The notes under the pieces are model-generated. The model saw only the letters and a program-made list of their open reading frames with translations. It was not told the origin of the DNA and ran no database searches. The position numbers and the translations under genes are program-made. A DNA stretch of 63,864 bases, the filler included, from an uncultured Ignavibacteriales bacterium (GTDB lineage: Bacteria > Zixibacteria > MSB-5A5 > GN15 > JAAZOE01), in assembly GCA_964611355.1 (NCBI GenBank). It is 3 parts of 3 records of this genome, joined end to end, with 100 filler letters (N's around TTAATTAATTAA, not from the genome) between each part and the next. Parts side by side here need not be neighbours in the genome. Positions count along the whole stretch, not along the records: positions 1 to 22,406 come from CAZSYD010000038.1; 2 more parts are not named here. The stretch is one strand, 5' to 3'. The stretch's first letter is position 1; every line of letters begins with the position of its first letter. Below, piece by piece: positions 8,232 to 23,850 of the stretch.

Positions 8232-8392
8232 GAATACCTCCGATGACGATATAAGTCTGACGGCGCAGTACCTGCTGGACTAACGGTTGTAATAGACACG
8301 CGGACTTTGGGTTAATATACGTAAAATCGAAAATTTGGCAACTGATTAATCCGACTTTGTATGCCATTGGCTTATTATGGGTTAATACAGGC

Positions 8393-8498
8393 CAAATAGG
8401 TTTTTTCATTTTTTTTGCTCTGCCGGAACAAAAAAAGCTTGACAAATAGGTTTTTTCATTTTTTTTGCTCTGCCGGAACAAAAAAAGCTTGACAAATA
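8393..8498. repeat. Perfect 50-bp tandem duplication containing TTGACA
   Basis: caaataggttttttcattttttttgctctgccggaacaaaaaaagcttga occurs twice in tandem. Confidence 0.95.
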
Positions 8499-8525
8499 TT
8501 AATATAATCAGTATTAATTATCATT
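8489..8525 (+). promoter_or_regulatory. Sigma70 promoter with overlapping putative PerR/Fur operator
   Basis: TTGACA at 8489, TATTAA 17 bp downstream; inverted repeat ATTAATA-N7-TATTAAT; directly upstream of the perR-like gene. Confidence 0.55.
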
Positions 8526-8544
8526 AGCACTATTGGAAAAGATT

Positions 8545-8988
8545 ATGAGGACTACCGGAAAAATTCAAAGAAACACAAGGCAACGCCGGGTGATTCTGGA
8601 AGAATTAAAAAAACTCAACTCGCACCCCACGTCGGCTGACCTGTATAAAATCGTACGCCGACGACTGCCCAAAATCAGCCTTGGGACGGTTTACCGCAAT
8701 CTGGAGCTTCTCGCCCGGAATAATATCATTCAGAAGCTGCATATCAGCGGTACGGAAGCGCGATTCGACGGCAACCCGGAGCCGCATAGTCATATTCGCT
8801 GCACTGAGTGTGGGCTGGTTAGTGACCTCTGTAAAATCCCGGCAGATCCAATAGGTAATGCATATAAGGATATTACCGGCTGGAAGATTCTCGGATATCG
8901 ATTGGAATTCATCGGCATTTGTCCTGAGTGCAGGCGGGATCAACTCAAGAAACAGAATCTCAATATTGCCGGGAAGAAACAACATTAA
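8545..8988 (+). CDS. perR: Fur-family regulator, PerR-like
   Basis: HPTSADLY, SLGTVYRNL, HSHIRCTEC, CPEC; first gene of a peroxide-stress operon. Confidence 0.8.
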   Translation: MRTTGKIQRNTRQRRVILEELKKLNSHPTSADLYKIVRRRLPKISLGTVYRNLELLARNNIIQKLHISGTEARFDGNPEPHSHIRCTECGLVSDLCKIPADPIGNAYKDITGWKILGYRLEFIGICPECRRDQLKKQNLNIAGKKQH

Positions 8989-9010
8989 AGAAAATAAGGA
9001 GTACAAACTG

Positions 9011-9209
9011 ATGTCCACAGGAGAAGTTCAAAAGGAGATTGTTTCCAACACAAGGCGCCGGCTGCCCTAAAGGCAGGAAGATGACGGCGCAGGAATACCT
9101 GCTTGATTATCTCCAGATTGATGAGGGGAAGTATAACAAAACCCTCAAAACATTGGCGACAATCAAGAAAAGTATATGCCCTGTGGCTAAATCGATATTG
9201 AAAGGATAA
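9011..9209 (+). pseudogene. Probable internally deleted, frameshifted remnant of a small ferritin-like gene
   Basis: AAGGAG RBS, then MSTGEVQKEIVSNTRR; after a frame change, MTAQEYLLDYLQIDEGKYNKTLKTLATIKKS (9081-9209). Confidence 0.45.
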
Positions 9210-9215
9210 TTAACC

Positions 9216-9737
9216 ATGGCTGAACGGAGTGATCTAATAAAAATGAAAGGCAACCCTCTGACTCTTGTCGGTGATGAAGTCAAGGTTGGCGATACCGCGC
9301 CTGATTTCACGGTTTTTAACGAAAACCTTGAACCTGTCAAACTCTCCTCTTTTAGTGGAAAGACGGTTGTCATTATCTCGGTTCCGTCTATAGATACGCC
9401 CGTTTGCGACATGGAAGCACGACGGTTTAACCGGGAAGCCGGGAATTTGGCCGATGATATCGTGATTCTTACGATTAGTATGGATTTGCCATTCGCCCAG
9501 AAGCGTTGGTGTGCATCTGCCGGAATAGAAAATATTCAATTGCTTTCCGATTATCGCAACGCTTCTTTTGGCAATTCGTTTGGTGTTCTGATCAAGGAGC
9601 TTGGACTTCTGGCCAGAACAATCTTCATTATCGACGGTGAAGGAAAGGTACAGTATGTCCAATATGTCAAAGAGACGACCGATGAGCCTGACTACGATGA
9701 AGTATTAACGGCCGTCAACGAAACATTAAAGAAATAG
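9216..9737 (+). CDS. tpx: Thiol peroxidase (atypical 2-Cys peroxiredoxin)
   Basis: VPSIDTPVC, ISMDLPFAQKRWC. Confidence 0.95.
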   Translation: MAERSDLIKMKGNPLTLVGDEVKVGDTAPDFTVFNENLEPVKLSSFSGKTVVIISVPSIDTPVCDMEARRFNREAGNLADDIVILTISMDLPFAQKRWCASAGIENIQLLSDYRNASFGNSFGVLIKELGLLARTIFIIDGEGKVQYVQYVKETTDEPDYDEVLTAVNETLKK

Positions 9738-9760
9738 GTATTTTCAGGAGGATTTAAGTT

Positions 9761-10135
9761 ATGACTGAAAAATTGCAGATTTACAAATGCCAGGTATGCG
9801 GCAACATCGTTGAAGTAATCCATACCGGCGCCGGAACGCTGGTCTGTTGCGGCCAGCCGATGAATCTACTCAAGGAAAACAGTACCGACGCCGCCACTGA
9901 AAAGCATGTACCGGTGATTGAGAAGACAAACGGCGGCTACAAGGTGACCGTCAGCAGCGTCGCTCACCCGATGGAAGAGAAGCATTATATCGAATGGATT
10001 GAACTGATTGCCGACGGCCGGGCGTACCGCCGGTTCCTGAACCCGGGGGATACGCCGGATGCAACGTTTATGATTACGGCCGATAAGGTTTCGGCCCGTG
10101 AATACTGTAACGTGCATGGTTTATGGAAAGCTTAG
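9761..10135 (+). CDS. dfx: Desulfoferrodoxin (superoxide reductase)
   Basis: [31 protein letters not shown]. Confidence 0.95.
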
Positions 10136-10153
10136 TTATTAAAGGAGGATGGA

Positions 10154-10609
10154 ATGAAGTTTGGTTCAGTTGATGAGATCCTTGATTACGCCATCCGGAA
10201 GGAGCAAGAAGCGGCCGATTTGTATACGTCGTTGGCCGGCAAGGTGGAAAAAAAGCATATGAAGGCTGTATTTGAGGAGTTTGCTCTCGAAGAAAAAGAC
10301 CACAAGGTAAAGCTCGAGAAAATTAAAGATGGTAAGCTGGATTTCTCTCCGTTATCGCAAAAGATAACGGATCTGAAAATCGGCGATTATTTGGTAGACA
10401 CCTCCCCTGATGCTAACCTCACTTATCAGCAGGCGTTAATCATAGCGATGAAAGAGGAAAAGGCGGCTTTCAGGTTGTATAACGATCTGGCTGCGTTGAC
10501 TTATAACCCTGAATTCAAACAGATTTTCCTCGGTCTGGCCCAAGAGGAGGCAAAGCACAAGTTACGGTTTGAGATCGAGTACGATGACATGATCCTGACA
10601 GATAACTAA
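10154..10609 (+). CDS. Ferritin-like / rubrerythrin-family diiron protein
   Basis: Repeated ExxH motifs (EEKDH, EEAKH); RBS AAGGAGG. Confidence 0.85.
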   Translation: MKFGSVDEILDYAIRKEQEAADLYTSLAGKVEKKHMKAVFEEFALEEKDHKVKLEKIKDGKLDFSPLSQKITDLKIGDYLVDTSPDANLTYQQALIIAMKEEKAAFRLYNDLAALTYNPEFKQIFLGLAQEEAKHKLRFEIEYDDMILTDN

Positions 10610-10634
10610 TGAGAATAGTAAGTTAAAAGGAAGT

Positions 10635-11153
10635 GTGATGATTAGTAAGAAAATCCAGGACGCTTTAAACGACCAGGTGGCTGCTGAATTCTATTCGGCA
10701 TACTTGTACTTGTCAATGTCCGCATACCTGGAATCTATCGATATTCCCGGGTTTGCCCACTGGATGCGAATCCAGTACCGGGAAGAAGTTACCCACGCGG
10801 AGAAGATATTCGATTACGTTATTGAGCGTGACGGCCGGGCTGCCGTTAAAGCCTGGGAGGCTCCGCCAACAGAATGGAAGTCGGTCCTCGACGTATTTGA
10901 GACAGCCTATGCCCATGAGCAAAAGGTAACCAGCCTGATCAACAACCTTGTCGATTTAGCTCTTGCTGAGAAGGATCATGCCTCGTACAACTTCCTTCAG
11001 TGGTTTGTGAATGAGCAGGTCGAGGAAGAAGCGTCCGTCAAGGCGATAGTCCAACAGCTCAGGTTGTTTGGCGATTCGAAGGCCGGGCTGTTCCAGATCG
11101 ACCGGGAGCTTGGACGGAGAACTTTTGCGCCCCCGGCCGACACTGCACAATGA
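10635..11153 (+). CDS. ftnA: Non-heme ferritin
   Basis: EFYSAYLYLSMS, EEVTHA, HEQKVT, FLQWFVNEQVEEE. Confidence 0.92.
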   Translation: MMISKKIQDALNDQVAAEFYSAYLYLSMSAYLESIDIPGFAHWMRIQYREEVTHAEKIFDYVIERDGRAAVKAWEAPPTEWKSVLDVFETAYAHEQKVTSLINNLVDLALAEKDHASYNFLQWFVNEQVEEEASVKAIVQQLRLFGDSKAGLFQIDRELGRRTFAPPADTAQ

Positions 11154-11183
11154 TACCAATTGAACCTGCGTAAGGAGGACAAT

Positions 11184-11759
11184 GTGGCAGACCTGAAAAA
11201 TACACAGACGGAGAAGAACCTTCTCACTGCTTTTGCCGGTGAGTCTCAGGCGCGGAACCGCTATACCTATTTTGCCGGCAAGGCTAAAAAAGAAGGTTTC
11301 GTCCAAATCGCGGACATATTCGAGGAAACCGCCAACCAGGAGAAAGAACACGCCAAACGGCTTTTCAAGTTCCTCGAAGGCGGCGAGGTCGAGATTCGAG
11401 CCGCTTTTCCGGCGGGGGTGATTGGCAATATGGCTGAGAACCTGAGGGCCGCGGCCGGTGGAGAGCATTACGAATGGGAAAGTATGTATCCCGATTTCGC
11501 GAAAGCGGCAAGAGAAGAAGGTTTCAATGAAATCGCATCGGTTTTTGAGGCTATCGCCATAGCTGAAAAGCAGCACGAGAAACGGTACCTTGATTTGCTG
11601 GCGAATATAGAAGCGGGAACGGTCTTCAGGAAGGAAAAGAAGGTAGTTTGGCGATGCCGGAACTGCGGGTACCTTCACGAAGGTACCGAAGCGCCCGATG
11701 TTTGCCCGGCCTGTGAGCATCCGCAGGCGCACTTTGAACTACTGGGTGAGAACTGGTAG
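11184..11759 (+). CDS. rbr: Rubrerythrin
   Basis: [35 protein letters not shown] start after AAGGAGG. Confidence 0.95.
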
Positions 11760-11861
11760 AACGCCAATAGTCCGGAGAAAGGATTCGTTTGCTTGATCGC
11801 CCTCAGCAACGGTTGGGGGAGGCCAAGTGGAGTTCACTCGAAGACTAACAGGTTACTGAAA

Positions 11862-13007
11862 ATGCTTGATTTCATAGCCGCAATCCTTACGGAGAGTTGG
11901 CTGGTTCTCGGCCAGATGGGGCCTTACCTGCTGTTTGGTTTCCTGGCCGCCGGAATGCTGTCAGTATTGATTTCACGGGAGTGGGTTGAACGCCACCTCG
12001 GCGGACACGGATTCGGGCCCGTGTTGAAAGCCTCGTTGTTCGGCGTGCCGTTGCCTCTATGCTCGTGCAGCGTAATTCCGGTATCGGTGTCCATGCGCCG
12101 GCACGGCGCGAGTCGCGCCGCGACGACAGCGTTCCTGCTTTCTACGCCTCAGACCGGCGTGGACAGTATCGCCGTTACCTACGCCCTGCTCGGCCCGGTT
12201 TTTGCAATCTTCCGACCGCTGACAGCTCTTCTCACCGGCTTGTTTGGCGGTGAACTGATACGGCATTATGGCGAGCAAAACGCGGCGGTGGCCGCAGACG
12301 GATCAACACCCGCTGCCGGCACCGACGTCTGCTGCGCGGGAGGACACCGAGCGAGCATTCCGGGCCGCATCTTGCGTTATAGTTTCGTGGCGCTGCCGCG
12401 GGACATCGGCGCGGCCTTACTGGTGGGAATTCTCATTGCCGGAACAATGGCGACGGTTATACCGAAGGATTATCTGGCGTTATATATAGGCGGCGGCGTA
12501 CTGTCAATTCTGCTAATGATGGCAGTGGGCATACCGTTATATGTGTGTGCCACCGCATCCGTGCCCATCGCCGCCGGATTTATACATATGGGCGCTTCTC
12601 CGGGCGCGGCCCTGGCATTCCTGATCGCCGGATCGGCAACCAATGCCGCAGGATTTGCCGCCATCTGGAAGGTATTGGGCACGAGGTCTGCTCTATTATA
12701 CCTTTCGACCGTTGCCGGCAGCGCACTGGGCGGCGGGCTACTTCTGAACCGGGTGATTCCGATGACGGGCTCGTCGCTGCCACAGCTTGCCGATCATGCC
12801 CACGCGCTGTCGGGAGGCAGCTGGTCGCATCACGTCTGGGCTGTCCTGCTCCTGACTGTGCTGGCATTTTCATACATATCGAAGGCTCATCCGGGAGACG
12901 ATGTTAAAAACGCGGGAAAGAGCGGCGGGGCGGCAACCGTTTATTCTCATGAAGGCGGCTTTGATATCCCGGCGGGCGACACCTGCTGCTCCCATGGAAG
13001 CAGATAG
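11862..13007 (+). CDS. SO_0444/DUF318-family metal permease
   Basis: GVPLPLCSCSVIP, STPQTGVDS, PLYVCATAS; His/Cys-rich loops. Confidence 0.85.
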   Translation: MLDFIAAILTESWLVLGQMGPYLLFGFLAAGMLSVLISREWVERHLGGHGFGPVLKASLFGVPLPLCSCSVIPVSVSMRRHGASRAATTAFLLSTPQTGVDSIAVTYALLGPVFAIFRPLTALLTGLFGGELIRHYGEQNAAVAADGSTPAAGTDVCCAGGHRASIPGRILRYSFVALPRDIGAALLVGILIAGTMATVIPKDYLALYIGGGVLSILLMMAVGIPLYVCATASVPIAAGFIHMGASPGAALAFLIAGSATNAAGFAAIWKVLGTRSALLYLSTVAGSALGGGLLLNRVIPMTGSSLPQLADHAHALSGGSWSHHVWAVLLLTVLAFSYISKAHPGDDVKNAGKSGGAATVYSHEGGFDIPAGDTCCSHGSR

Positions 13008-13032
13008 AGAACTGATCTATTAAAGGACGCTT

Positions 13033-14220
13033 ATGAATATAACATTGCGAGAAAATATTGACTGGGTCGGGTATGTGGATTGGACCATCCGCGACTTTCA
13101 CGGCTACCGGACCGAACAAGGCACAACTTATAACGCCTATCTCGTTCGGGACGAAAAGACAGCGCTGATCGACACCGTCAAGGCTCCCTACAGGCAACAT
13201 TTACTCCGGAACGTTTTAGCCTTAACCGCACTGTCGGGTATTGACTACATCGTCTGCAACCATGCCGAGCCTGACCATTCCGGAGCCCTTCCCGAAGTTA
13301 TGGCGGCGATACCCAACGCGACACTCGTGTGCGACCAGAAATGCCGGGCGGCATTATCCGGATATTACGACATTTCCGACTGGAGAATCCGGATTATTGC
13401 GAGCGGCGATACGATATCTCTCGGCAGGCGGACGCTTCAATTTGTCGAAACGCCGATGCTGCACTGGCCTGAATCGATGTTTACCTATGTCCCGGAAGAG
13501 AAGCTGCTATTCTCAATGGACGCTTTCGGGCAGCATTATGCGACCTCGCAAAGGTTTGATGACGAGGCGTCATTATCGAATATCATGGCTGAGGCCCGGA
13601 CTTATTACGCCAACATAGTAATGCCATACGGCGCGCGCGTCGCAGCAACGCTGAAAAGCGCAGCCGGGCTCGATATCGAGATGATCGCACCGAGTCATGG
13701 ATTGATCTGGCGCAGCCACATACCGGAAATTATGAAAGCCTACGGAAACTGGGCGCTCTGCCGTCCAAAGCCAAAAGTGCTGATAATATACGACACCATG
13801 TGGGACAGCACCGGCGAGATGGCGCGGGCTATTCTCGAAGGAGCTTCTCTTCCCGGCGTTGAGGTGCAGCTTATTTACATCCGCAGCTCAAACCTTACTC
13901 GGATAGCGGCTGAATCACTTGACGCCGCCACTATTGCTTTTGGCTCATCCACGCTCAACTCGGGAATGATGCCGATGGCCGCGGCAGCTCTGACGTATCT
14001 GAAGGGCTTAAGACCCGCCGGTAAAGCCGGCTTCGCTTTTGGTTCATACGGTTGGGGGCGAGGCGGGCCGGAGGCAATAGATGAGTATATGAAGGCCATG
14101 AAATGGGAAATATTGCGTGATCCGCTCAAGGCCCGGTACCGCCCTACAGCGGAGATACTGGATGAATGCCGCAGCGCCGGGAAGCTGCTGGCGACAAAGG
14201 CAAAGGACTTGGCTGAATGA
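13033..14220 (+). CDS. fprA: Flavodiiron protein (FprA/ROO)
   Basis: HAEPDHSG, HWPESM, DAFGQH, APSHG, flavodoxin domain FGSYGW. Confidence 0.93.
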   Translation: MNITLRENIDWVGYVDWTIRDFHGYRTEQGTTYNAYLVRDEKTALIDTVKAPYRQHLLRNVLALTALSGIDYIVCNHAEPDHSGALPEVMAAIPNATLVCDQKCRAALSGYYDISDWRIRIIASGDTISLGRRTLQFVETPMLHWPESMFTYVPEEKLLFSMDAFGQHYATSQRFDDEASLSNIMAEARTYYANIVMPYGARVAATLKSAAGLDIEMIAPSHGLIWRSHIPEIMKAYGNWALCRPKPKVLIIYDTMWDSTGEMARAILEGASLPGVEVQLIYIRSSNLTRIAAESLDAATIAFGSSTLNSGMMPMAAAALTYLKGLRPAGKAGFAFGSYGWGRGGPEAIDEYMKAMKWEILRDPLKARYRPTAEILDECRSAGKLLATKAKDLAE

Positions 14221-14283
14221 AGATGACGGTAGAATCGACGAATCGATCTTTGGTTTTCTACTCAATGCAAAGGAGAACATAAA

Positions 14284-14445
14284 ATGAAGAAGTACGTCTG
14301 TAATGTCTGCGGATGGGTTTATGACCCTAAGGTTGGGTTGCCGGAAGAAGGTATTGATCCGGGCACTTCGTTCGAAGATCTCCCTGAGGATTTCGTTTGC
14401 CCCGAGTGCGGCGCGGGTAAAGATGAATTTTCTCCGGAAGATTAG
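14284..14445 (+). CDS. Rubredoxin (53 aa, not in the ORF track)
   Basis: [44 protein letters not shown]. Confidence 0.95.
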
Positions 14446-14749
14446 CGGTATAATCTTCCGACTTCCTGCTGCTTATCGCAGGAGAGTTTGAGTAATTAAC
14501 GCGAGGTTTGCCGTATCTTCTGCGCCACGGCCGTAAAGAAATCGAAAACGTCCAGGCGCATAGCCCTGCCCGTGCGACTTTGACCGAGTCTATGCGGCAA
14601 AATGCTAATTAAAGAAAAGCCAAAACGGCGAGTCATATCAACTGCCTTTCGGGTATTAGGCAAAAGTCCTTGTGAATAAAGGAACTGCCTCTTATCTTAA
14701 AACCGAATATCCCTTTTTTATCAAATATGACTGTGGCCCCGATTGGTAT

Positions 14750-15799
14750 ATGGGAAAAGACAGTGACCATGAAGTTGTAAAACGCTTTCTTGAGGAGCCT
14801 CGCTCCAGGGAACGTTTTGACGCCTTTTTCGAGTTGTGTTACCGGCATATTCTCGGATTTTTGGGATATCTTAGGGCCAGGGGATTTCTACTGCCGATCG
14901 AGCAAAAATCCGATCGCGACCCGTTATCCGATCTCGCTATTGATGTTCTTGGGCCTTTTCTGCAAAGCTCCGGCAATCGACCATGCGTGTTGGTTTTTGA
15001 TTTCTTCCACAGGCGGGGAATTACCGATTTTAAATCGGCTGATTCGGTCAAGCTTTACGACTTATTCAGGTCTCTCTTGTTTGGATTCACCCGCCAGGAA
15101 CTGAGCCGCCTGAGAAAAGACGCCGACACTCAACTCGATCATCTCAAAAGACGGTTTAAAGATGTTCTTAAAGGCGACGAATATACTTCGTTTTCGACCG
15201 GAAACGACCGAATCGAATACATCAGGCTCGCCAATGTTGAAACGGACAAACACGAGAACCGTCCGATGATTTTATATGACAGGTTGACGGCCTTGGTTGA
15301 GAATGCCTACCACCAGAGCAAAAGCCGCAAGGAATGGTGCCGGAATATCTTCAATGCTCTGAATGCGGAGATATCAGTTCAGAACTGCCTTAAAAAACAT
15401 GAACTGCTCAGTGCGGTGGTAACGGTCAACATGAAATATGTTGAGGTTGACGCCCTGATACCGTCATACTCCCAGGCAGCCGATAACGGCATCCTGAAAG
15501 AGGCGATTGAAATCGCCAAAAAGCAGACTCTTGCCTGGTTGGATAAAAACGTATTGCGAAAATTCGTCCAAAAGGATCGTATAACAACCGAAGTTGCTGA
15601 CCGGTTCCGGGATGCGGCGGAACGGTATTTGTCGGATCTTGCTCACTCGCCGGGGGTTGACCTGCTTCCCGTGTATTTCAGAGAGGTAATGCCGGAAAAT
15701 GAACACAACCGTTACCTGAAAGATTATAAACATATCTTCGAAACGACTATCCGCAAAGCCGAAGATGATTTCAAAAAAAGATTAAGAAAAAACCTATAA
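14750..15799 (+). CDS. Divergent ECF-sigma-factor-like protein (alternative GTG start at 14672)
   Basis: N-terminal pattern resembles sigma region 2 (FDAFFELCY..DLAIDVL..FRSLL..RQELSR); basic C-terminal helix; lies upstream of a zf-HC2 gene. Confidence 0.5.
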   Translation: MGKDSDHEVVKRFLEEPRSRERFDAFFELCYRHILGFLGYLRARGFLLPIEQKSDRDPLSDLAIDVLGPFLQSSGNRPCVLVFDFFHRRGITDFKSADSVKLYDLFRSLLFGFTRQELSRLRKDADTQLDHLKRRFKDVLKGDEYTSFSTGNDRIEYIRLANVETDKHENRPMILYDRLTALVENAYHQSKSRKEWCRNIFNALNAEISVQNCLKKHELLSAVVTVNMKYVEVDALIPSYSQAADNGILKEAIEIAKKQTLAWLDKNVLRKFVQKDRITTEVADRFRDAAERYLSDLAHSPGVDLLPVYFREVMPENEHNRYLKDYKHIFETTIRKAEDDFKKRLRKNL

Positions 15800-15833
15800 A
15801 AACCAATTATGGTATCTATCTTAAAGATGTAGA
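15794..15833 (+). promoter_or_regulatory. Bipartite motif, copy 1: CTATAAA-N11-GTATCTATC-N5-GATGTAGA
   Basis: Same spacing of the first two blocks as copy 2 at 19028; precedes the anti-sigma gene. Confidence 0.65.
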
Positions 15834-15852
15834 GAACTATGAAAGGTAAATT

Positions 15853-16707
15853 GTGCATCCGCCAAAAGACAAACTGAAGCTTTTTGTTGAACGCCGGCTG
15901 GATATTTCAGAGGTCGAGCCGATCAAAGACCACCTCGAAGAATGCGAATTCTGTCGGCAGTTCTGCGAAAATTATCGCTTGTTGCTGGATTCCCTGAATA
16001 AAACAAAAAACCAAAAAATCCCGCCCGCCGCCATGGAACTGGCCGACCGGATATTCCGACAAGCTATGAAGGCCAGTATTATTCATCTTTTCCCGCTCAC
16101 TACGGCTGAAATCGAATCAATCATTCTCCTCGCCGCCGACGGTCAAAAAAAACCGACTCCAACCGTGCAAAACCTGACCACTTTGTATTCCGAAGACCCG
16201 GAGGTCGTTCTGCGCGTCATGCGCGACCCTGACCGCGATCACGACTACCTTCAGTTAATCAGCGATGACCCCGGTCTGGTGTCTTGTGTCATGGTGCAGC
16301 TTCCCGAGCTGGGCCGCGAATATATCACCGATGAAAACGGCCACGCTGTCATCGAAGGCGATACTCCTGAAGAATGCGGCAAACTCAAATGGCAGATCAA
16401 AATGCCGGACGCCGTCTTCGATCTCGAACCGCTCGTTTATGATCCAAACAAAGTCGAGTATTCCGGAGAGACCATCCTTGAAACCGAAAACAGGGATAAG
16501 ATACGGGTAACCTTCGAGGGAAAAACCGAAGGCAAACAGATTACGCTTCGCATAATCGAACTCGACGGCAAAACCGATTTCGGAAACATCAAGGTATTTG
16601 TTTCCCAGCACAAGATCGGCAGGCTGATCAAAGCCGGGCCGAATGAATCGGTCACGTTCGACATAGCCGATCCGGAAAGTTCGATAAATATCAGGTTGTT
16701 TCAATAA
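15853..16707 (+). CDS. Putative soluble anti-sigma factor (zf-HC2) with beta-rich C-terminal domains
   Basis: MHP..DHLEECEFC (H-x3-C-x2-C); no TM helix apparent. Confidence 0.7.
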   Translation: MHPPKDKLKLFVERRLDISEVEPIKDHLEECEFCRQFCENYRLLLDSLNKTKNQKIPPAAMELADRIFRQAMKASIIHLFPLTTAEIESIILLAADGQKKPTPTVQNLTTLYSEDPEVVLRVMRDPDRDHDYLQLISDDPGLVSCVMVQLPELGREYITDENGHAVIEGDTPEECGKLKWQIKMPDAVFDLEPLVYDPNKVEYSGETILETENRDKIRVTFEGKTEGKQITLRIIELDGKTDFGNIKVFVSQHKIGRLIKAGPNESVTFDIADPESSINIRLFQ

Positions 16708-19023
16708 ATGGGCGTATCGCCGTTACAATTCGCCAAAAATTTCGCCCGGCTGAAATCCGACCTGCCAACTTTGTTGGCACCGGATTTGAAGCTGCTTCGT
16801 TTGATCCGATTCTGGCCCGATCTTAAACCGCTGGCAGGTAAAGTATCGTACCGCACGTATTTTGACGAATACATTCCCTTCATTCACCATCTCGTTACCG
16901 AACAGACGTTGTTTGATTTTTCGATCGACGAGCTTTCGGCTCTCCGTGACATTCTCCGCTCTTTGGATGAGTCAAACGAAACCGAATCGACGCGCGACCT
17001 GAATAGTCATAAACTGCGACTTGTTACTTACAGGCTGGCGACTATTCTCTGCTATGTCGGAGACTTCGAAAAGGCGATACCGCTTTGTGCCGAATTATCC
17101 GCTGATGGAGATATCGCTTTTCCCGATAGCGAGGATTTGGAAGATCTGGATGCTTTCGATGCGCTGCGGGTTCTTTCTGAAAGATACAAGCCCGAACATC
17201 CGGCTTTGGGAAATATCCTGAAGGACATCTATGAATGCTGGGAAGGCGAAAGGTCGTGCCTGAATCATGACCGCGCCTGGTGCCTGTTTGTGGAGAAAAA
17301 TCAAATCGGTCAGGCAACGCGCGGGCGAATGAGAACGCTTCACGGAACGGTTGAGCTTCGCGCTCCACTGAAAAAAGATGGCGACGCCCCTGACACCGTC
17401 ACCTTCGACAACCAGGTCAAATCACCGGATGACCCTTTTATCGGTGTTGTCTATGATTCCCTGACAGCGGTCAGGAATCTCCTGAAAAAGACCCGCTTTT
17501 CAGGTAAGGCGGACGGGTCATATCGAGCGTTTTTCTCCATACCGGAAAGTCGGCAGACGTTCACCGGCGATTCGATAGGTCTGGCGGCGGGGCTGGTGGC
17601 TTATACTCAGCTTCTCAAAACAGAAATCATGCGTCAGGAGAGGTTTGTCGCTTCCGAAGTTGCTTTCACCGGCGGCCTTGACGCAGACGGCAGACTGCTC
17701 CCGATAGACAAAGACACGCTGGGTGTCAAAATCGAGCGGGCGTTTTTCTCGCCGGTAAAATATCTGGCTCTGGCCGAAGAATGCCTTGCCGATGCCGGAG
17801 AATACCTGAACAGCCTGTCCCGCAAATATCCTCGCCGCCGTTTGCTTCTGATCGGCCACGAACGCCTGACTGACGTTATTGAAAACCACAACGTCGTCCG
17901 TTCCCAAAAGGTCTGCATCGGCGAGTTTGTGGTCAGAAAAGCGGCCAAATACAGCCGCGCGACAAAGGTCCAAGTGCCGATAATGCTGATCTTATTATAC
18001 TTCTTTCTATGCCTGATATACCCAAAAGCCTGGGTCTTTTTCGACTGGAATCCCCAGTATGTGAAGTTTAATGCATCATCCACAGGATTTGTTGCAATGA
18101 ATAAGGATTCCATTCCCTTGTGGTCAGTGGAGTATGAGTGCAATTCTATTGATACAACATCCAGTTGGAGAATCGGCGACCTTAACGGCGACGGGAGAAA
18201 CGAGGTGGCGTTTGTTCCAGGAGCTTCAAAAACGTTGCGTTGTGGAAGCAATGCAAACCTCTTTGTTTACGATGACGATGGCACTCTGCTGTTTCAACGA
18301 TATTGCGCAAAAGACGATGAGTACCCCGGCACCCAACCACCATGTGGTGTTAAACCAGTGGTGGTTGAGAAGGTTGGTGACAGGAGCATAATCATAACAG
18401 GAGCCACACGATCCTTCCCTGCTCGGCTATACCTAATGTTCTGGAATCACGAAGGCGACTTGCTCGGCTGGTATATAAATGCCGGCTACAGCGGAGCCTT
18501 TGGCAGCAACTTCTTACGCTATTCCGATTCGCAGTTCGTATTCCTGGGCTACAACAATAGGATGGAATGCGCATGTTTGTATGTTCTGGAGCCATATTCA
18601 AGTTATGGCGTGTCTCCACCTTATACCGATCCAGGCTATAATCTCGATAATGTGAAGCGGGGCAACCAGATATACTACGTGCTCTTTCCGCGTTCTGACC
18701 TGAACCGAGCAGTATTTGCCGATTACAACTCCCCGGGCGGACTCTTTCTCGAGTCTGACGGCCGCTTCAGGGCCGATGTCTTTGAGCGGGACGCTAAAAG
18801 TGCGGCACTCAGCTACTATCTTGACAGCAGCTTTCGCGTGGTTAATGTATCGTACGACGACTGTTTCCGACCATGCCGCGACAGCCTGGTCGCAGAAGGA
18901 AAGCTCTCAGCTATCAATTGGTCAACATACTGCAACAATTTGCGCGACTCTTTGACCTACTGGAGGGAGTCCGGCTGGGTAACAGAAGGCCAACGTCGCA
19001 AATCCGAACAAAAAGCAAAATAA
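16708..19023 (+). CDS. Single-pass membrane protein: cytoplasmic Lon/S16-type Ser-Lys protease domain plus external FG-GAP domain
   Basis: FTGDSIGLAAG..VAFTGGLDADGRLLPI..GVKIERA; TM segment VPIMLILLYFFLCLIY; GDLNGDGRNEV. Confidence 0.75.
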   Translation: MGVSPLQFAKNFARLKSDLPTLLAPDLKLLRLIRFWPDLKPLAGKVSYRTYFDEYIPFIHHLVTEQTLFDFSIDELSALRDILRSLDESNETESTRDLNSHKLRLVTYRLATILCYVGDFEKAIPLCAELSADGDIAFPDSEDLEDLDAFDALRVLSERYKPEHPALGNILKDIYECWEGERSCLNHDRAWCLFVEKNQIGQATRGRMRTLHGTVELRAPLKKDGDAPDTVTFDNQVKSPDDPFIGVVYDSLTAVRNLLKKTRFSGKADGSYRAFFSIPESRQTFTGDSIGLAAGLVAYTQLLKTEIMRQERFVASEVAFTGGLDADGRLLPIDKDTLGVKIERAFFSPVKYLALAEECLADAGEYLNSLSRKYPRRRLLLIGHERLTDVIENHNVVRSQKVCIGEFVVRKAAKYSRATKVQVPIMLILLYFFLCLIYPKAWVFFDWNPQYVKFNASSTGFVAMNKDSIPLWSVEYECNSIDTTSSWRIGDLNGDGRNEVAFVPGASKTLRCGSNANLFVYDDDGTLLFQRYCAKDDEYPGTQPPCGVKPVVVEKVGDRSIIITGATRSFPARLYLMFWNHEGDLLGWYINAGYSGAFGSNFLRYSDSQFVFLGYNNRMECACLYVLEPYSSYGVSPPYTDPGYNLDNVKRGNQIYYVLFPRSDLNRAVFADYNSPGGLFLESDGRFRADVFERDAKSAALSYYLDSSFRVVNVSYDDCFRPCRDSLVAEGKLSAINWSTYCNNLRDSLTYWRESGWVTEGQRRKSEQKAK

Positions 19024-19027
19024 TTTT

Positions 19028-19066
19028 CTACAAATCGCTCGGTTAGTATCTATCCCTTGATATAGA
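19028..19066 (+). promoter_or_regulatory. Bipartite motif, copy 2: CTACAAA-N11-GTATCTATC-N4-GATATAGA
   Basis: Matches copy 1; precedes the secreted FG-GAP gene. Confidence 0.65.
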
Positions 19067-19201
19067 AAAGACACGTTAACGGAAGTCTTTAAGGGATCAG
19101 TCAGGTTTTGTTGACAGAACCCAGGGTGGCTTGGTCAACAGCGCCGGACGAGAATTGGCGAAAACCTGAAACTTCGCGAATTAAAGAAGGAAGGAACTGA
19201 C

Positions 19202-21949
19202 ATGTTCAGAAAGGTAAAAAACCTGATGCTGATGCTCTGTCTCGCGGCTTTTTGCATTGTTTCAGCAGCAAAAGCTGATGGGCCAGCATGGGAAAGGTTC
19301 GAGTACGACCTCGCCCGTACCCACTATTATCCATACGGATCATCTTACGAGATTTCGTTTGATGATTTTCAACCGGCGTGGATAGTGCCAGTCGCAACTC
19401 AGGCCGTCTTGACTGGTGACATAAATGGTGACGGGAAGCTTGAGGTTGTGTCTTGGGACGCGCCGAATATACGAGTCTTTGACAACGAAGGTCAAGAGCT
19501 GTGGACCGTTCCCATATCTGGATTTGTTCGAGAACCATCCTTGTTAGATGCTACAGGAGATGGAGTCCCGGAAATTGCGGTTGGAAGGAGAACGAGCTCA
19601 GACAGCTTGCAGATACTCGTCTATGACGGTTCAGGTACTCTACTAAAAACAATTGGCAAAGCGGGTGGCTACGATAGCAGTATTCGTCCTTGGCTCGCCG
19701 CCGATTGTAACAGTGACGGTACAATAGAAATACTTGCCATCCAAGATGCGGCTTGGAGTAATGAGCCCCGGGGAGTCTCGCTCTTTGATTACGAAACAGG
19801 TCAGGAGTTGTGGTACTATGATATGGGTCCGCAAATCTGCAATGGGGCGGTTGGAGACATTGACGAGGACGGAGACCTAGAAGTAATCAAAGACGCCGCG
19901 ACGGTGTTCAATGGCGCTTGGGGGTGCGGTGTTAATGGCCAAAACACCTGTACTTATGACAATGCAGTCGCAACGATAGTTGTAGATGCGTGCACGGGAG
20001 ACGAGGCCTTCACGAAATTCTACAGTCCTGAAAGGGGCTGGTTATATCACGCTATTGTAGACTTGGATCGCAGCGGTGATGCAAATATCCTGTGCTTTCG
20101 GGGGCACGATAGTTACTATCCAGGAACCATGAATATTTTGCTTCTGGACGATCAGGGCGACACCCTCAGTACGTGGACATATGACGGGCCGGAAAACAGG
20201 TTTACTAGGGCTGGGAGCTGGGCGATAGCAGATGTCGATGCCGACAACCGGGAAGAAATAATAGTCTGTGACTGGAATGCTCCACTTGGACTGACTACCG
20301 ATTATACTATGCGTATAATAGACGATGATCTCAGTCAGCAATTGTTTGTAAATGATACAGTTGTAAACGCTGACAACAACCGAATTACGATAAATGTGAC
20401 CGACCTGAACGGTGACGGAAGCAATGATATACTGGTCACAGATTACCAAAACGGCAAACTGAGAGTGCTTAACAACACCCTCAATGAAATCTGGTCATAC
20501 GATGCTCCGCACATCCAGCAAATAGCCCTCAGCGATTTGAATGGCGATGGCATACCGGAGATTATCGTGGCGGCCGATTCCCTCGTCGTTTTAGCTTATC
20601 CCAGCCAAATCTCCATCCCCGCCATCGATACCTGCGTATGGTGGAAAGATTCTCTTGGTGGAGTAATCGTACCTGTATATGCGTCGGTATCCAGCCCTGT
20701 GTGCGGTTTGCAGGTACCTATTTCATGGAATGGACCGACAGATTGTGAACTTATTGAAATTGAATACGCAGGTACAGGGTTGGCAACCTGGGGCTACATG
20801 GGCGATTCGATAAATAATGTCGAAAAGTTTGTCAATTTTGGCGGTGCCGTCGGGGAAGGAACGCCTATCCCTGCGGGATGTAATCAGCTTATTGCCAAAC
20901 TGCATTTTGTCTATACCGGTGAAGGTTATCCGACCGAGCCGTTTGAATTAACCTTTGATACGACGACCGTAGGTCCCTCTTCTCTGCTATTCTACGGTTG
21001 CGAAGAGCCGGTTGGAGTCAGTATTGTGCCAATTGTAGCATTTGACACGGTTAATGTTTTGTTTGGTTACCTACCGGGTGATGCCAATGCGGATTGTGCT
21101 GCGAATGTCGGCGATGCTGTGTATTTGCTGAATCACGTATTTAAGGACGGTCCAGCGCCAATGCCACCCAATTCGGGTGACCCCAACGCAGATGGTTCCG
21201 TGAATCTTGGCGACGCCGTATATCTCATTAATTACGTATTCAAAGGCGGCGCTGATCCTGATTGCGGCAACGTTCCTGACGATGAATCAATTTGCTGTGG
21301 CGGCGGCGGCGAGAAAATGGCAAAGGCGTACAGGCTGGATTCACCAGCGGTAAATACGCGGTTTGATGGTGAAAAGACAACCATCGAAATCGAATCGGCC
21401 TTTGACCTCTATGGCGTTCAATTCGATATCGAATGCGTCGAAAACGCCGTTATCACAAATCTTGCGCAAAACACCCAGCTTTATGAGGGACATTCGGGCG
21501 ATCAGGCGCGCATCGGTCTGCTTGACATGAAAGGAGAGGGTTACATACCCGCCGGTCAGAGGACAATCCTCGAAATATCCGGCGCGGCAAATATCCTGTC
21601 GGCTCTTGGCGCAGACGAAAAGGGCACGACAGTTGAAATTGTCATCGGATCAACCGAAAAGATCGCTTCTTTGCCGGAGGCTTTCTCACTCAGCCAGAAC
21701 CACCCCAACCCGTTCAACCCGATGACGACGATCAGCTTCAACCTGCCCGAAGCGTCCGACGTTACGCTGGATGTATTCAACGTCGCCGGACAAAAGGTTG
21801 CGACTCTTGTTNNNNNNNNNNCGGGAGGGCACAGAATCACCTGGGACAGCAAAGATGATAACGGTAATGCCGTTGCCAGCGGTATTTATCTCTACCGGAT
21901 CAAGGCCGGCAGCAATACCGATACCAAGAAGATGCTGCTTCTCAAATAA
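19202..21949 (+). CDS. Secreted FG-GAP repeat protein with cohesin-like, dockerin and FlgD-Ig/T9SS-type C-terminal domains
   Basis: Signal peptide; many DxNGDG repeats; [41 protein letters not shown]; short N gap at 21812-21821. Confidence 0.85.
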
Positions 21950-21997: not shown

Positions 21998-22039
21998 AAA
22001 AGCCCGGCGGAGATAATGCTTTCCCCGCCGGGTTTTTTT
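21998..22039. terminator. Bidirectional intrinsic terminator
   Basis: aaaagcccggcgg...ccgccgggttttttt between convergent genes. Confidence 0.8.
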
Positions 22040-22062
22040 ATGGCTGTATTGCTCTATGTCAA

Positions 22063-22406: not shown

Positions 22407-22506
22407 NNNNNNNNNNNNNNNNNNNNNNNNNNNNNNNNNNNNNNNNNNNNTTAATTAATTAANNNNNNNNNNNNNNNNNNNNNNNNNNNNNNNNNNNNNN
22501 NNNNNN
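22407..22506. other. Artificial contig linker
   Basis: N-run, TTAATTAATTAA (stops in all six frames), N-run. Confidence 0.97.
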
Positions 22507-23171
22507 CTCATCCCAATATCAAGTTTGAGGTTTTTGAGCGCTTGAATTCTGGCTCGATTACTTTAAACTCCCAAGAGATGCGGAATTCTCTTTTCCGCGG
22601 ATCATTCAACCGCATGTTGCAAGAACTGGTAACATATTTAGGACTGAGGGAGCTATTGGGGACGAAGGAACCACGTAGGAGAATGGTCGATCAAGAGCTA
22701 CTTCTCAGGTTTTTTGCCCTAAGTGACAGACTTGGAGATTACCGAGCTCCGCTTAAGAGGTTTCTCAACGAATATATGGATGACGTGCGAGATGCCGATG
22801 AGAGTGCCTTGGGTGAATACACGCGCAAATTCGAGTCGACTGTAGAAAGGCTCAGAGAACTTTTCGGAGGAAGTGCATTTAGACTATGCGATGAGAGTGG
22901 GGTTCCTATCGAGAGGACAGTTAATAGGGCCTTATTTGATGCTCAAATGATGGCAGCATCTTGGATTACGGATCAATCCCCATTTAATACTAGCGTCAAG
23001 ACTCGGCTAACTAGCGAACTCGCGCATCTTTATCAGGACCAGGATTTTCTCGATTCAATTCAGAAAGCTACTGGAAACACATCCAACACGCGCCGTCGTA
23101 TCAGATTGATGGCTTCAGCATTTGAGCGGAGTGGTTTGGCATTGACTATACCATTTGACCTTAGCGAGTGA
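22507..23171 (+). CDS. DUF262-family protein, C-terminal part
   Basis: FEVFERLNSGSITLNSQEMRN, RMVDQELLLRFFA. Confidence 0.85.
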
Positions 23172-23178
23172 CTTCACT

Positions 23179-23850
23179 ATGCCGTCGAATTCGCAAATTG
23201 CACTTAGAAGGTCAATGGTGGAGGTCGTGGATCTACTGAGTTGTGCAAGGCCCGGTGCCATGAAACTTGCCCAGCAAAAAGCACTCGGCAGGGCTGCTAT
23301 TGTACTCATAACCAGTCACATGGAACGCTATCTGCGTGCCGTAAATGAAGAATTAGTGGATTGTCTTGTCGCCTCTAACGTTATTGGTGAGGTGTTGCCT
23401 GAAGGCATTCGACTTTTGCACAGCAAGGTTCCTATAGAAGAGATTGAGCCCGTCCAGTGGGATAACAGATCTGGCAAGCTGGTAGACTTTGTCGAGACGG
23501 ACGCTTGGCTCTGGTCGGCAGGGAATTCTGGACAGCTAAAGCACCGCCGTCTTCTATCTTGGATGAAGTCACCGAAGCCAGCAAGTCTTGTTCGTTACTA
23601 CAAGTACTGGGGAATCGAAGACATCTTTAAGGCAATTACACGGAAATCGGCCACACGTAGTGACCTTTGGTTCAGGATAAAGGAAGTAGTCGACAAGCGA
23701 AACAACATCGCGCATGGTGATGCATCCGCATCTGCCACGTTTTCAGATGTTCGCAAGTACATCGTGGCAGTAACTAGCCTATGTGATAGGGCTGATCGAA
23801 TTCTGGCAAAGGCAGTAGCAACTAGACTGAAAATAGCAAAGCCGTGGTGA
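23179..23850 (+). CDS. HEPN-domain putative RNase (MAE_28990/MAE_18760-like)
   Basis: RNNIAHG (Rx4H) motif; directly downstream of the DUF262 gene. Confidence 0.8.
   Translation: MPSNSQIALRRSMVEVVDLLSCARPGAMKLAQQKALGRAAIVLITSHMERYLRAVNEELVDCLVASNVIGEVLPEGIRLLHSKVPIEEIEPVQWDNRSGKLVDFVETDAWLWSAGNSGQLKHRRLLSWMKSPKPASLVRYYKYWGIEDIFKAITRKSATRSDLWFRIKEVVDKRNNIAHGDASASATFSDVRKYIVAVTSLCDRADRILAKAVATRLKIAKPW

Follow-up and report, generated by a model that had tools for sequence, protein, structure and literature searches.

The window analyzed here is a stretch of 63,864 nucleotides from the genome of an uncultured Ignavibacteriales bacterium (assembly GCA_964611355.1). Positions 1–22406 of the window are one contig (C38) of a 110-contig, 2.57-Mb genome, and the remainder is other sequence joined via N-linkers; directly after the contig end, at 22407–22507, N-runs flank a short 'ttaattaattaa' spacer. 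The subject of this report is a group of four co-oriented genes on the plus strand of contig C38. The gene g1 (14672..15799, an open reading frame (ORF) of 375 aa) encodes a sigma-factor-like helical protein, g2 (15853..16707, 284 aa) a soluble zinc-type anti-sigma-like protein resembling the zinc-binding anti-sigma (ZAS) group, g3 (16708..19023, 771 aa) a single-pass receptor protease, and g4 (19202..21949, 915 aa) a secreted protein that combines a signal peptide with an FG-GAP propeller, a dockerin, and a sorting domain of the type IX secretion system (T9SS). An earlier note, drawn up from the DNA alone, had placed four co-oriented genes here with a TAA–ATG junction between g2 and g3, and this arrangement is found as described: The stop codon of g2 ends at 16707, and the start codon of g3 begins at 16708, leaving a spacer of zero. 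On balance, and by a slight preference only, g1, g2, and g3 appear to form a transmembrane proteolytic signaling module that would release the sigma-like g1 through cleavage of g2.

The protein g3 has 114 homologues in a homologue search, at 31–64% identity and mostly labeled Zixibacteria; direct family searches with g3 (Pfam, NCBIfam, PADLOC, and PDB sequence) give nothing over threshold. Its AlphaFold (AF2) model, built with 35 homologues, has a mean predicted local distance difference test (pLDDT) of 88.3 and features a helical region (residues 1–183), an alpha/beta domain (185–400), a long helix (404–437), and a beta-rich ectodomain (450–770). The N-terminal all-helical domain (16708..17256) is predicted to be cytoplasmic; a different N-domain is found in a second subfamily. 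The alpha/beta domain (17260..17907), likewise predicted to be cytoplasmic, is a Lon (S16) proteolytic domain as judged by Foldseek, VIA, and profile alignment. Foldseek matches it to the proteolytic domain of Escherichia coli Lon, 3wu4_A, with an E-value of 1.9e-8 and a TMt of 0.81, and VIA aligns it to Bacillus subtilis Lon, 8dvh_B, with a Z of 21.0 and a root-mean-square deviation (rmsd) of 2.3 (177/188 aligned). Nine Lon proteolytic domains are matched by VIA at Z 18.9–21.0 (1rr9_A at 20.1), followed by RadA and BrxL domains; CalpL, 7qda_A, is matched at Z 12.0. The Pfam family Lon_C (PF05362) is recognized in 3 of 35 relatives at E ≤ 0.01 (best 7e-4), and one homologue bears the automatic UniRef name "Lon proteolytic domain-containing protein." The catalytic dyad is formed by Ser289 of the GDSIG motif (codon 17572–17574) and Lys341 of the GVKIERA motif (codon 17728–17730). 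Of 119 family members, 117 have Ser289 (two fragments have a gap there) and all have Lys341, five members of the second subfamily included. In the family profile, KIERA is aligned to the QKIEAA motif of Archaeoglobus fulgidus Lon, the Lys of which is catalytic. An AAA+ module is not seen, as g3 has no Pfam ATPase match and residues 1–183 are all-helical without a beta-sheet in the model; a SAVED domain is likewise not matched in g3 by Pfam.

The membrane topology of g3 follows from a single hydrophobic segment at residues 418–446 (17959..18045), identified in a Kyte–Doolittle scan and overlapping helix 416–437 of the model. Five Lys/Arg residues lie within the 18 residues before this segment and one after it, which places the N-terminus and the protease inside and the propeller outside (N-in/C-out). 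The extracytoplasmic part (18046..19020) consists of an FG-GAP-like beta-propeller and a small C-terminal alpha/beta part and is the presumed sensor. It matches propellers at VIA Z 10.5–12.5, those of the integrin-alpha type at about 10.7, and its profile matches 6mlt_A (1.4e-4) and YesW (2.6e-3); FG-GAP_3 is recognized in 6 of 35 relatives at E ≤ 0.01. Hence, the features that the earlier note had ascribed to g3—an intact Lon-type dyad at 17572 and 17728, the lack of an AAA+ module, one transmembrane helix, and an external FG-GAP domain—are all borne out. In three further loci, an N-terminal HATPase_c domain (E 5e-12 to 2.8e-9) precedes the same transmembrane helix and propeller in one protein. 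The transmembrane–propeller unit is a swappable sensor module, carried either by a kinase-type ATPase or by a Lon protease, and this swappability is the strongest argument for g3 being a receptor. The fold, the topology, and the dyad of g3 are established on computational grounds. The HATPase_c fusions themselves are about 700 aa long (L055:3952-6045, L056:4029-6143, and L062:2960-5044, the last on the minus strand), and their topology, with a cytoplasmic N-terminus and a C-terminal sensor, is unusual for a histidine-kinase-like protein. Genes for a bactofilin and an M23 peptidase adjoin the fusion in L055 and L062.

The protein g2 features an N-terminal zinc motif, a short conserved linker motif, and a conserved C-terminal domain. 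The motif H27-x3-C31-x2-C34 (15931..15954), already noticed in the earlier note together with the lack of a transmembrane helix, matches at the sequence level the pattern of zinc anti-sigma factors. His2 (15856–15858) is the likely fourth zinc ligand: It is nearly invariant, and a Cys is found near that position in the second subfamily. The resulting spacing of four ligands, with a His or Cys 25 residues upstream, presumably resembles that of ChrR. The best match of the g2 profile in the PDB is the anti-sigma factor RsiW (E 0.011), NCBIfam RsrA is matched by the window g2 at E 0.047, and zf-HC2 is recognized in 5 of 33 relatives at E ≤ 0.01 (best 7.6e-9); automatic UniRef naming within the family mentions only a "zinc-finger domain." No transmembrane segment is seen in g2, the top 19-residue Kyte–Doolittle window reaching 1.58. 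The second conserved element, L93-A94-A95-D96-G97 (16129..16143), is located in an otherwise variable linker and is the most conserved part of g2 outside the zinc site. Its general form is [L/M]-A-A-D-[G/S/T], with Leu in 28 and Met in 5 of 33 sequences, and it reads LAA-Q/K-G in the divergent subfamily. H27, C31, C34, A94, A95, and D96 are invariant in the 33 sequences of the first set, and H27, C31, C34, A94, A95, and G97 across both subfamilies. The motif is the proposed site of a cut after A95 and would then act as a latent ssrA-like C-terminal degron, as suggested by the alignments and by the precedent of CalpT. The C-terminal domain (about residues 105–284; 16165..16704), in which T159, D160, G163, and W180 are conserved, is by analogy a candidate docking domain for the g3 protease.

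The protein g1 is the most divergent of the components. Its homologues align from about residue 27 and the pLDDT of its model stays below 50 over residues 1–28, which makes the ATG at 14750 the likelier start. The AF2 model (pLDDT 83.6, predicted template modeling score 0.43) features an N-domain at about 30–166, a middle part of a beta-hairpin and three helices at 170–260, and a C-terminal helical domain at 270–375. The family is large, comprising 1145 representative clusters at E ≤ 0.001. Upon comparison with 48,161 chains by VIA, the N-domain resembles region 2 of sigma factors: pro-sigmaK at Z 6.9 (rmsd 3.1, 98 aligned), sigma70 7xya_F at Z 6.6 (rmsd 3.2, 96 aligned), SigI6 at 6.3, SigC at 6.1 (rmsd 2.8, 82/89 aligned), BldN and region 2 of sigmaE at 6.0 each, and domain 2 of sigmaA at 5.5. 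Altogether, the sigma-2 matches span Z 5.5–7.1 and rmsd 2.8–3.3, and sigma factors make up 10 of the 12 VIA rows starting in the N-domain. The three-helix middle part could, as judged by the model, be an equivalent of sigma region 3; full-length sigma factors align over residues 22–375 only at rmsd 18–24. In the ESM Atlas, g1 is closest to unnamed clusters (0.95), and clusters of Sigma70_r2 and Sigma70_r4 follow at 0.84 and 0.82, below the level at which the tool reports a lead. Searches of g1, and likewise of g2, in Pfam, NCBIfam, PADLOC, and PDB sequence give nothing over threshold. A weak match of g1 to CTD11 of ABC-3C systems (E 0.02, 15.9 bits with a cut-off of 27.7) was dismissed as noise, as were weak PADLOC matches among g1–g3 (E 0.0095 and 0.0048). 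Two members of the g1 family, P0252 (951 aa, with the g1 domain at 623–948) and P0256 (487 aa), carry long extra regions without a Pfam family.

Binding of g1 by g2 is supported by co-folding. With residues 1–110 of g2, g1 reaches an ipSAE of 0.70 (0.70, 0.71, and 0.65 in three runs), and the best of three controls reaches 0.00; the mark of 0.70 is attained by 58 of 80 solved complexes and by 2 of 110 mismatched pairs. Between runs, at least 49% of the contacts recur, and the partner pLDDT is at least 67. In the predicted interface, residues 43–105, 130, 213–219, and 256–259 of g1 face residues 2–74 of g2, that is, its zinc domain, and the g1 helices in contact are the sigma-2-like ones. The co-fold pass may partly reflect likeness to known structures, because complexes of zinc anti-sigma and sigma factors have already been solved.

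The gene order is conserved across the family. Relatives of g3 were collected in 43 loci, of which 37 are testable; the six left out comprise four at contig edges and two with N-runs directly upstream. In 31 of the 37, tblastn places g1 and g2 immediately before g3. One more locus (L043) carries a divergent g1 recognized by eye, and in another (L031), a protein with Sigma70_r4 (E 1.9e-7) stands in place of g1, upstream of a g2 of the zf-HC2 type. A g2 ORF is present in 32 loci, and in most of these its end lies only a few bases from the start of g3. Apart from a secreted protein downstream of g3, no other neighbor is conserved across the loci. A second, divergent family of the triad (L057–L060) consists of g1′ (335–371 aa), g2′ (267–274 aa), and g3′ (706–718 aa), the latter with a different N-domain. 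In a further locus of this subfamily (L061:2526-3185), a TM1506/DUF1893 protein (E 2.3e-20) occupies the expected place of g1′, upstream of g2′ and g3′. Within a sample of 151 genomes of the phylum—related genomes, so that the counts are not independent—g3 is matched in 73 and g1 in 69; both occur in 64, g3 only in nine, g1 only in five, and neither in 73. Seven of the nine g3-only genomes match on the transmembrane-plus-propeller part only, and the three examples fetched are the HATPase_c fusions. At least two of the five g1-only matches (G015 and G021) start within 10 bases of a contig end. The module occurs in about half of the phylum genomes sampled, with up to five copies per genome. Given this family-wide conservation and synteny, the features of the four genes are far beyond chance, and both the conservation of the Ser/Lys pair and the co-occurrence of the three genes elsewhere, on which the earlier note had made its proposal depend, are found.

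The closest known counterpart is the CalpL–CalpT–CalpS system of type III CRISPR (clustered regularly interspaced short palindromic repeats). CalpL cuts CalpT within LAAA, between A204 and A205 (CCaCalpL), and the end of the N-terminal fragment, PETLQLAA, is a C-degron like the ssrA end ENYALAA (10.1101/2024.05.08.593097). According to the same work, cleavage occurs in trans inside an oligomer, the C-terminal fragment of CalpT binds the N-domain of CalpL, and the cut alone does not release CalpS, further processing being needed (10.1101/2024.05.08.593097). Both systems are three-gene cassettes with an ATPase-less Lon Ser–Lys protease preceded by an N-terminal helical domain, and both have a soluble inhibitor on a sigma-like protein, in which LAA|A of CalpT corresponds to the invariant [L/M]AA-D/Q-G of g2. 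They differ in sensing, as CalpL uses a cytoplasmic SAVED domain that binds cA4, whereas g3 has a transmembrane helix and an outside beta-propeller. In addition, the CalpL setting is a type III CRISPR locus, whereas no CRISPR genes are found on the contig of g3; g2, unlike CalpT, is of the zinc (HxxxCxxC) anti-sigma type; the Lon domain of g3 resembles canonical Lon (Z 21.0) more closely than CalpL (Z 12.0); and, in contrast to the ECF (extracytoplasmic function)-like CalpS, g1 (375 aa) carries an additional middle domain and is not matched by any Pfam sigma family. The module is CalpL/T/S-like in its working but lies outside that class, as it has no SAVED domain, no CRISPR context, and another type of anti-sigma protein.

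Parallels to other regulatory systems are partial. In the sigmaE pathway of RseA, DegS, RseP, and ClpXP, an outside signal leads to cutting of the anti-sigma factor, and ClpXP degrades a fragment ending in Ala-Ala, so that the sigma factor is set free. RseA, however, spans the membrane and is cut by two proteases in turn, whereas g2 is soluble and g3 would unite receptor and protease in one protein. BlaR1 and MecR1 are likewise single membrane proteins that carry an outside sensor and a cytoplasmic protease, the latter cutting a soluble regulator of transcription (BlaI/MecI). Those systems use a zinc metalloprotease, a penicillin-binding sensor, and a DNA-binding repressor as the target; here, the corresponding parts are a Lon Ser–Lys protease, a propeller, and an anti-sigma-like protein. 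Class I zinc anti-sigma factors (RsiW, RsrA/ChrR) share with g2 the H-x3-C-x2-C motif in an N-terminal helical domain. By contrast, g2 bears a conserved C-terminal domain of 190 residues and no transmembrane helix, and its proposed trigger is a dedicated receptor protease rather than redox change or site-1/site-2 cleavage. The SigI–RsgI systems for cellulosome genes of Clostridium thermocellum also connect an outside sensor to a sigma factor via proteolysis and involve secreted proteins with dockerin or carbohydrate-binding domains; RsgI, however, is described in the available texts as itself the membrane anti-sigma factor, cut by autoproteolysis and RseP, and without a Lon domain (PMC10328401, PMC12203970).

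From these elements, the following mechanism can be proposed. In the resting state, g2, as a soluble protein of the zinc anti-sigma type, would hold g1 via its sigma-2-like helices, with g1 acting as a putative working sigma factor. The protein g3 would reside in the inner membrane, its propeller sensor outside and its ATPase-less Ser289–Lys341 protease inside. An external cue sensed by the propeller, possibly a glycan or surface protein, would activate the protease, probably by bringing protease domains together as in CalpL. The protease would then cut g2 after the invariant [L/M]-A-A and before D/Q-G, and the N-terminal fragment ending in LAA would serve as an ssrA-like degron, so that ClpXP removes the fragment and g1 is freed. 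Cleavage after LAA followed by removal through ClpXP is suggested by the LAA|A cut and degron of CalpT, by the invariant LAA of g2, and by the organism's own tag, which ends in AMAA. The host genome encodes clpP–clpX, and its transfer-messenger RNA (tmRNA; contig C64 of genome G000, 1678–2037, minus strand, as found by aragorn) specifies the tag GDFEYAMAA, whose end parallels the alternation of Leu and Met in the g2 motif. As for the site LLAADG suggested in the earlier note, the invariance of AA-x-G across both subfamilies and the CalpT precedent speak for it, and actual cutting of g2 by g3 is proposed by analogy. Freed g1 would direct or modulate transcription, the likeliest targets being the operon itself and the downstream T9SS-secreted g4. 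A broader reading, which falls somewhat short of even likelihood, takes the family as a class of receptor proteases in which a propeller-activated, ATP-independent Lon domain clips a zinc anti-sigma factor at LAA|D/Q-G, unmasks a degron, and frees a divergent branch of sigma-70 proteins (at least 1145 clusters) that would control T9SS-secreted, glycan-binding surface proteins.

A number of results weigh against this interpretation. The inventory of components stands firm; that g1 is a sigma factor, like each step of the mechanism, is drawn from sequence, models, and analogy. At the level of single domains, the window g3 has no match to Lon_C at E ≤ 1 and reaches only E 0.077 with FG-GAP_3, below the Pfam threshold, and the window g2 stays below the Pfam threshold for zf-HC2 (PF13490). 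The largest share of the contrary results concerns g1. The Z of 5.5–7.1 for its N-domain falls in the range that VIA flags as common among helical proteins, for which reason the sigma-2 likeness is treated as moderate evidence. Its C-terminal domain (270–375) matches generic helical bundles only in VIA, with no hit to sigma region 4. This domain is also not contacted by g2 in the co-fold, which differs from the sandwiching of class I anti-sigma domains between sigma2 and sigma4. Aligned by hhalign with eight ECF sigma factors of the same genome, the g1 family reaches probabilities of 1.9% (A2) and 0.4% (A5), and with the sigma-like protein of L031, 0.1%. No Pfam sigma domain is found in g1 or in 24 distant relatives, no sigma factor is matched by the g1 profile in the PDB, and Foldseek gives nothing for the g1 model at E ≤ 0.001. 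Dyad searches for promoters upstream of g1 (30 sequences) reveal no alternative-sigma motif, and upstream of the downstream gene (18 sequences), nothing rises above shuffles; a housekeeping-like TTGAC/TATAT pair precedes g1 in 6 of 30 sequences (shuffled maximum 4). Finally, four testable loci (L022, L036, L038, and L042) carry a g3 homologue without g1 and g2. The earlier description of g1 as a divergent sigma factor, hence, holds in part: The sigma-2-like N-domain, at modest Z, is in its favor, and the sequence comparisons show no link to sigma factors.

The same relay could operate with a different outcome, in that g3 cuts g2 as proposed, and g1 is another kind of helical regulator or effector sequestered by g2. 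The sigma-2 shape would then be a common helical arrangement, and the missing sequence or profile link to sigma factors, the Z below 8, the absent sigma-4 match, and the absent promoter motif would be accounted for. This possibility is nevertheless rather unlikely: The N-domain matches almost only sigma factors, g2 as a protein of the zinc anti-sigma type docks on precisely these helices in the co-fold, and a Sigma70_r4 protein replaces g1 in L031.

The gene downstream of g3 bears on a second alternative. In the window, this is g4, the dockerin of which lies at about 21074–21238 as judged by a domain scan and the T9SS sorting domain at about 21704–21937 (TIGR04183 at E 1.7e-9, with a score of 37.5 and a cut-off of 23 bits; PF18962 at 1.1e-7). 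A 10-N assembly gap is located inside g4 at 21812–21821, and the match to the sorting domain continues in frame across it. Among 22 scanned co-oriented genes directly downstream of g3 in other loci, 14 have a T9SS-type tail, six a dockerin, and four no Pfam match. Their heads vary: FG-GAP in four, lactonase/YncE-type propellers in three, CBM_4_9 in three, and LVIVD, GH43 plus laminin-G, C-type lectin, and sortilin-type in one each. The reading of g4 as a conserved orthologue was rejected, as only the C-terminal part of the cohesin/dockerin/T9SS type recurs and the heads differ. The ectodomain of g3 and the propeller of g4 show a weak likeness (pairwise BLASTP E 7e-4). In several loci, the gap from g3 to the downstream gene is as short as 7–42 nt, which makes co-transcription likely in those loci. 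The induced output gene of the earlier note is, accordingly, better described as a variable T9SS cargo, probably co-transcribed with g3 in several loci. As a linked, variable surface or secreted partner, g4 may be a target, a co-sensor, or a ligand. A GC-rich hairpin followed by a T-run after g4 (22000..22040, plus strand), recognized by eye, is a probable operon terminator that the consensus scan did not list; the consensus scan for promoters and terminators stays at background level. In the 178-nt spacer between g3 and g4, an inverted repeat GTTGAC...GTCAAC, also found by eye at 19100–19140, could be a hairpin or a protein-binding site.

The frequent T9SS protein downstream of g3, often at a very short gap, would also suit a protease that acts on other substrates—itself, envelope proteins, or a precursor of the T9SS cargo—with g1 and g2 as its regulators or adaptors. 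The four loci in which g3 stands without g1 and g2 agree with this; g3 is fragmented in L036 and L038. In L022, the g3 homologue (7974–9548, 524 aa) stops after the protease domain and has no g2, and a canonical ECF sigma factor (6720–7418, minus strand; Sigma70_r2 2.3e-18, Sigma70_r4_2 5.5e-15) is encoded divergently from it. Canonical Lon proteases, moreover, have little sequence specificity, as stated in the introduction of 10.1101/2024.05.08.593097. However, the protease domain is predicted to be cytoplasmic, whereas g4 is exported via a signal peptide, and the tight coupling of g2 and g3 together with the invariant LAA-D/Q-G in a variable linker fits a dedicated substrate; such a role is, hence, improbable.

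The surroundings of the four genes provide little further indication of function. Among the ORFs of at least 150 aa that cover contig C38 and were scanned with Pfam, no cas genes are found, as the earlier note had stated for the vicinity, and no other defense genes either. A gene for a HEPN RiboL-PSP protein (23155–23850) and its upstream partner (22542–23171) were ruled out as neighbors, as they lie beyond the end of C38 (22406), on another contig. A CalpL-like alarm against phage or envelope attack, in which the propeller would sense phage or surface damage and trigger defensive transcription or growth arrest, would suit the patchy spread (73 of 151 genomes match the g3 profile, seven of them on the propeller part only), the up to five copies per genome, and the architectural parallel to CalpL/T/S, yet it is very improbable given that PADLOC shows nothing above noise for g1–g3, the contig carries no cas or defense genes, neighbors other than the secreted protein are not conserved, and the HEPN genes at 22542–23850 belong to another contig.

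Directly upstream of g1, the window carries an oxidative-stress cluster (8533–14446) with genes for a Fur-family regulator, a peroxiredoxin, two rubrerythrins, a ferritin, an ArsP-type permease, and a flavodiiron protein; it ends with a small rubredoxin-like ORF (14285–14446), recognized by eye. A rubrerythrin-like gene also lies directly upstream of the lone g3 homologue in L036 and L042. Zinc anti-sigma factors are often redox-linked. The position of the oxidative-stress genes beside g1 may be a coincidence. Dockerins are found on other secreted enzymes of the window as well, namely an M14 carboxypeptidase (5373–8231, minus strand) and a C1 papain-like protease with a lectin-like domain (33146–35524), which suggests a dockerin-based surface system in the host organism.

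All three proteins of the triad are labeled hypothetical in the databases. No published description of the g1–g2–g3 architecture was found by full-text searches, with supplements outside their scope, in agreement with the earlier note, the author of which knew of none. In the available text of PMC2605481, FG-GAP domains are paired with trypsin-type proteases only, and that of PMC7826278 discusses ECF groups without reference to Lon. The g1–g2–g3 module is real, conserved, and so far undescribed, and it probably represents a new form of regulated anti-sigma proteolysis.

If the proposed mechanism is true, the module would constitute a new transmembrane signaling route in which a single protein acts as both receptor and protease on a soluble anti-sigma factor. 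Bacteria would then have a single-protein alternative to the cascade of two proteases in regulated intramembrane proteolysis, and CalpL/T/S would have a membrane counterpart. It would also link Lon-type signaling proteases—so far known from CRISPR-associated CalpL—with zinc anti-sigma factors and the unmasking of ClpXP degrons, and it would provide a first function for three large families of hypothetical proteins. The family of g1 could reveal a branch of sigma-70 proteins that sequence methods have missed. With an invariant motif, a catalytic dyad, and soluble partners, the proposal lends itself to direct tests in vitro. The propeller sensor, being found on a histidine-kinase-type ATPase as well, would offer a handle on surface sensing by these uncultured bacteria.

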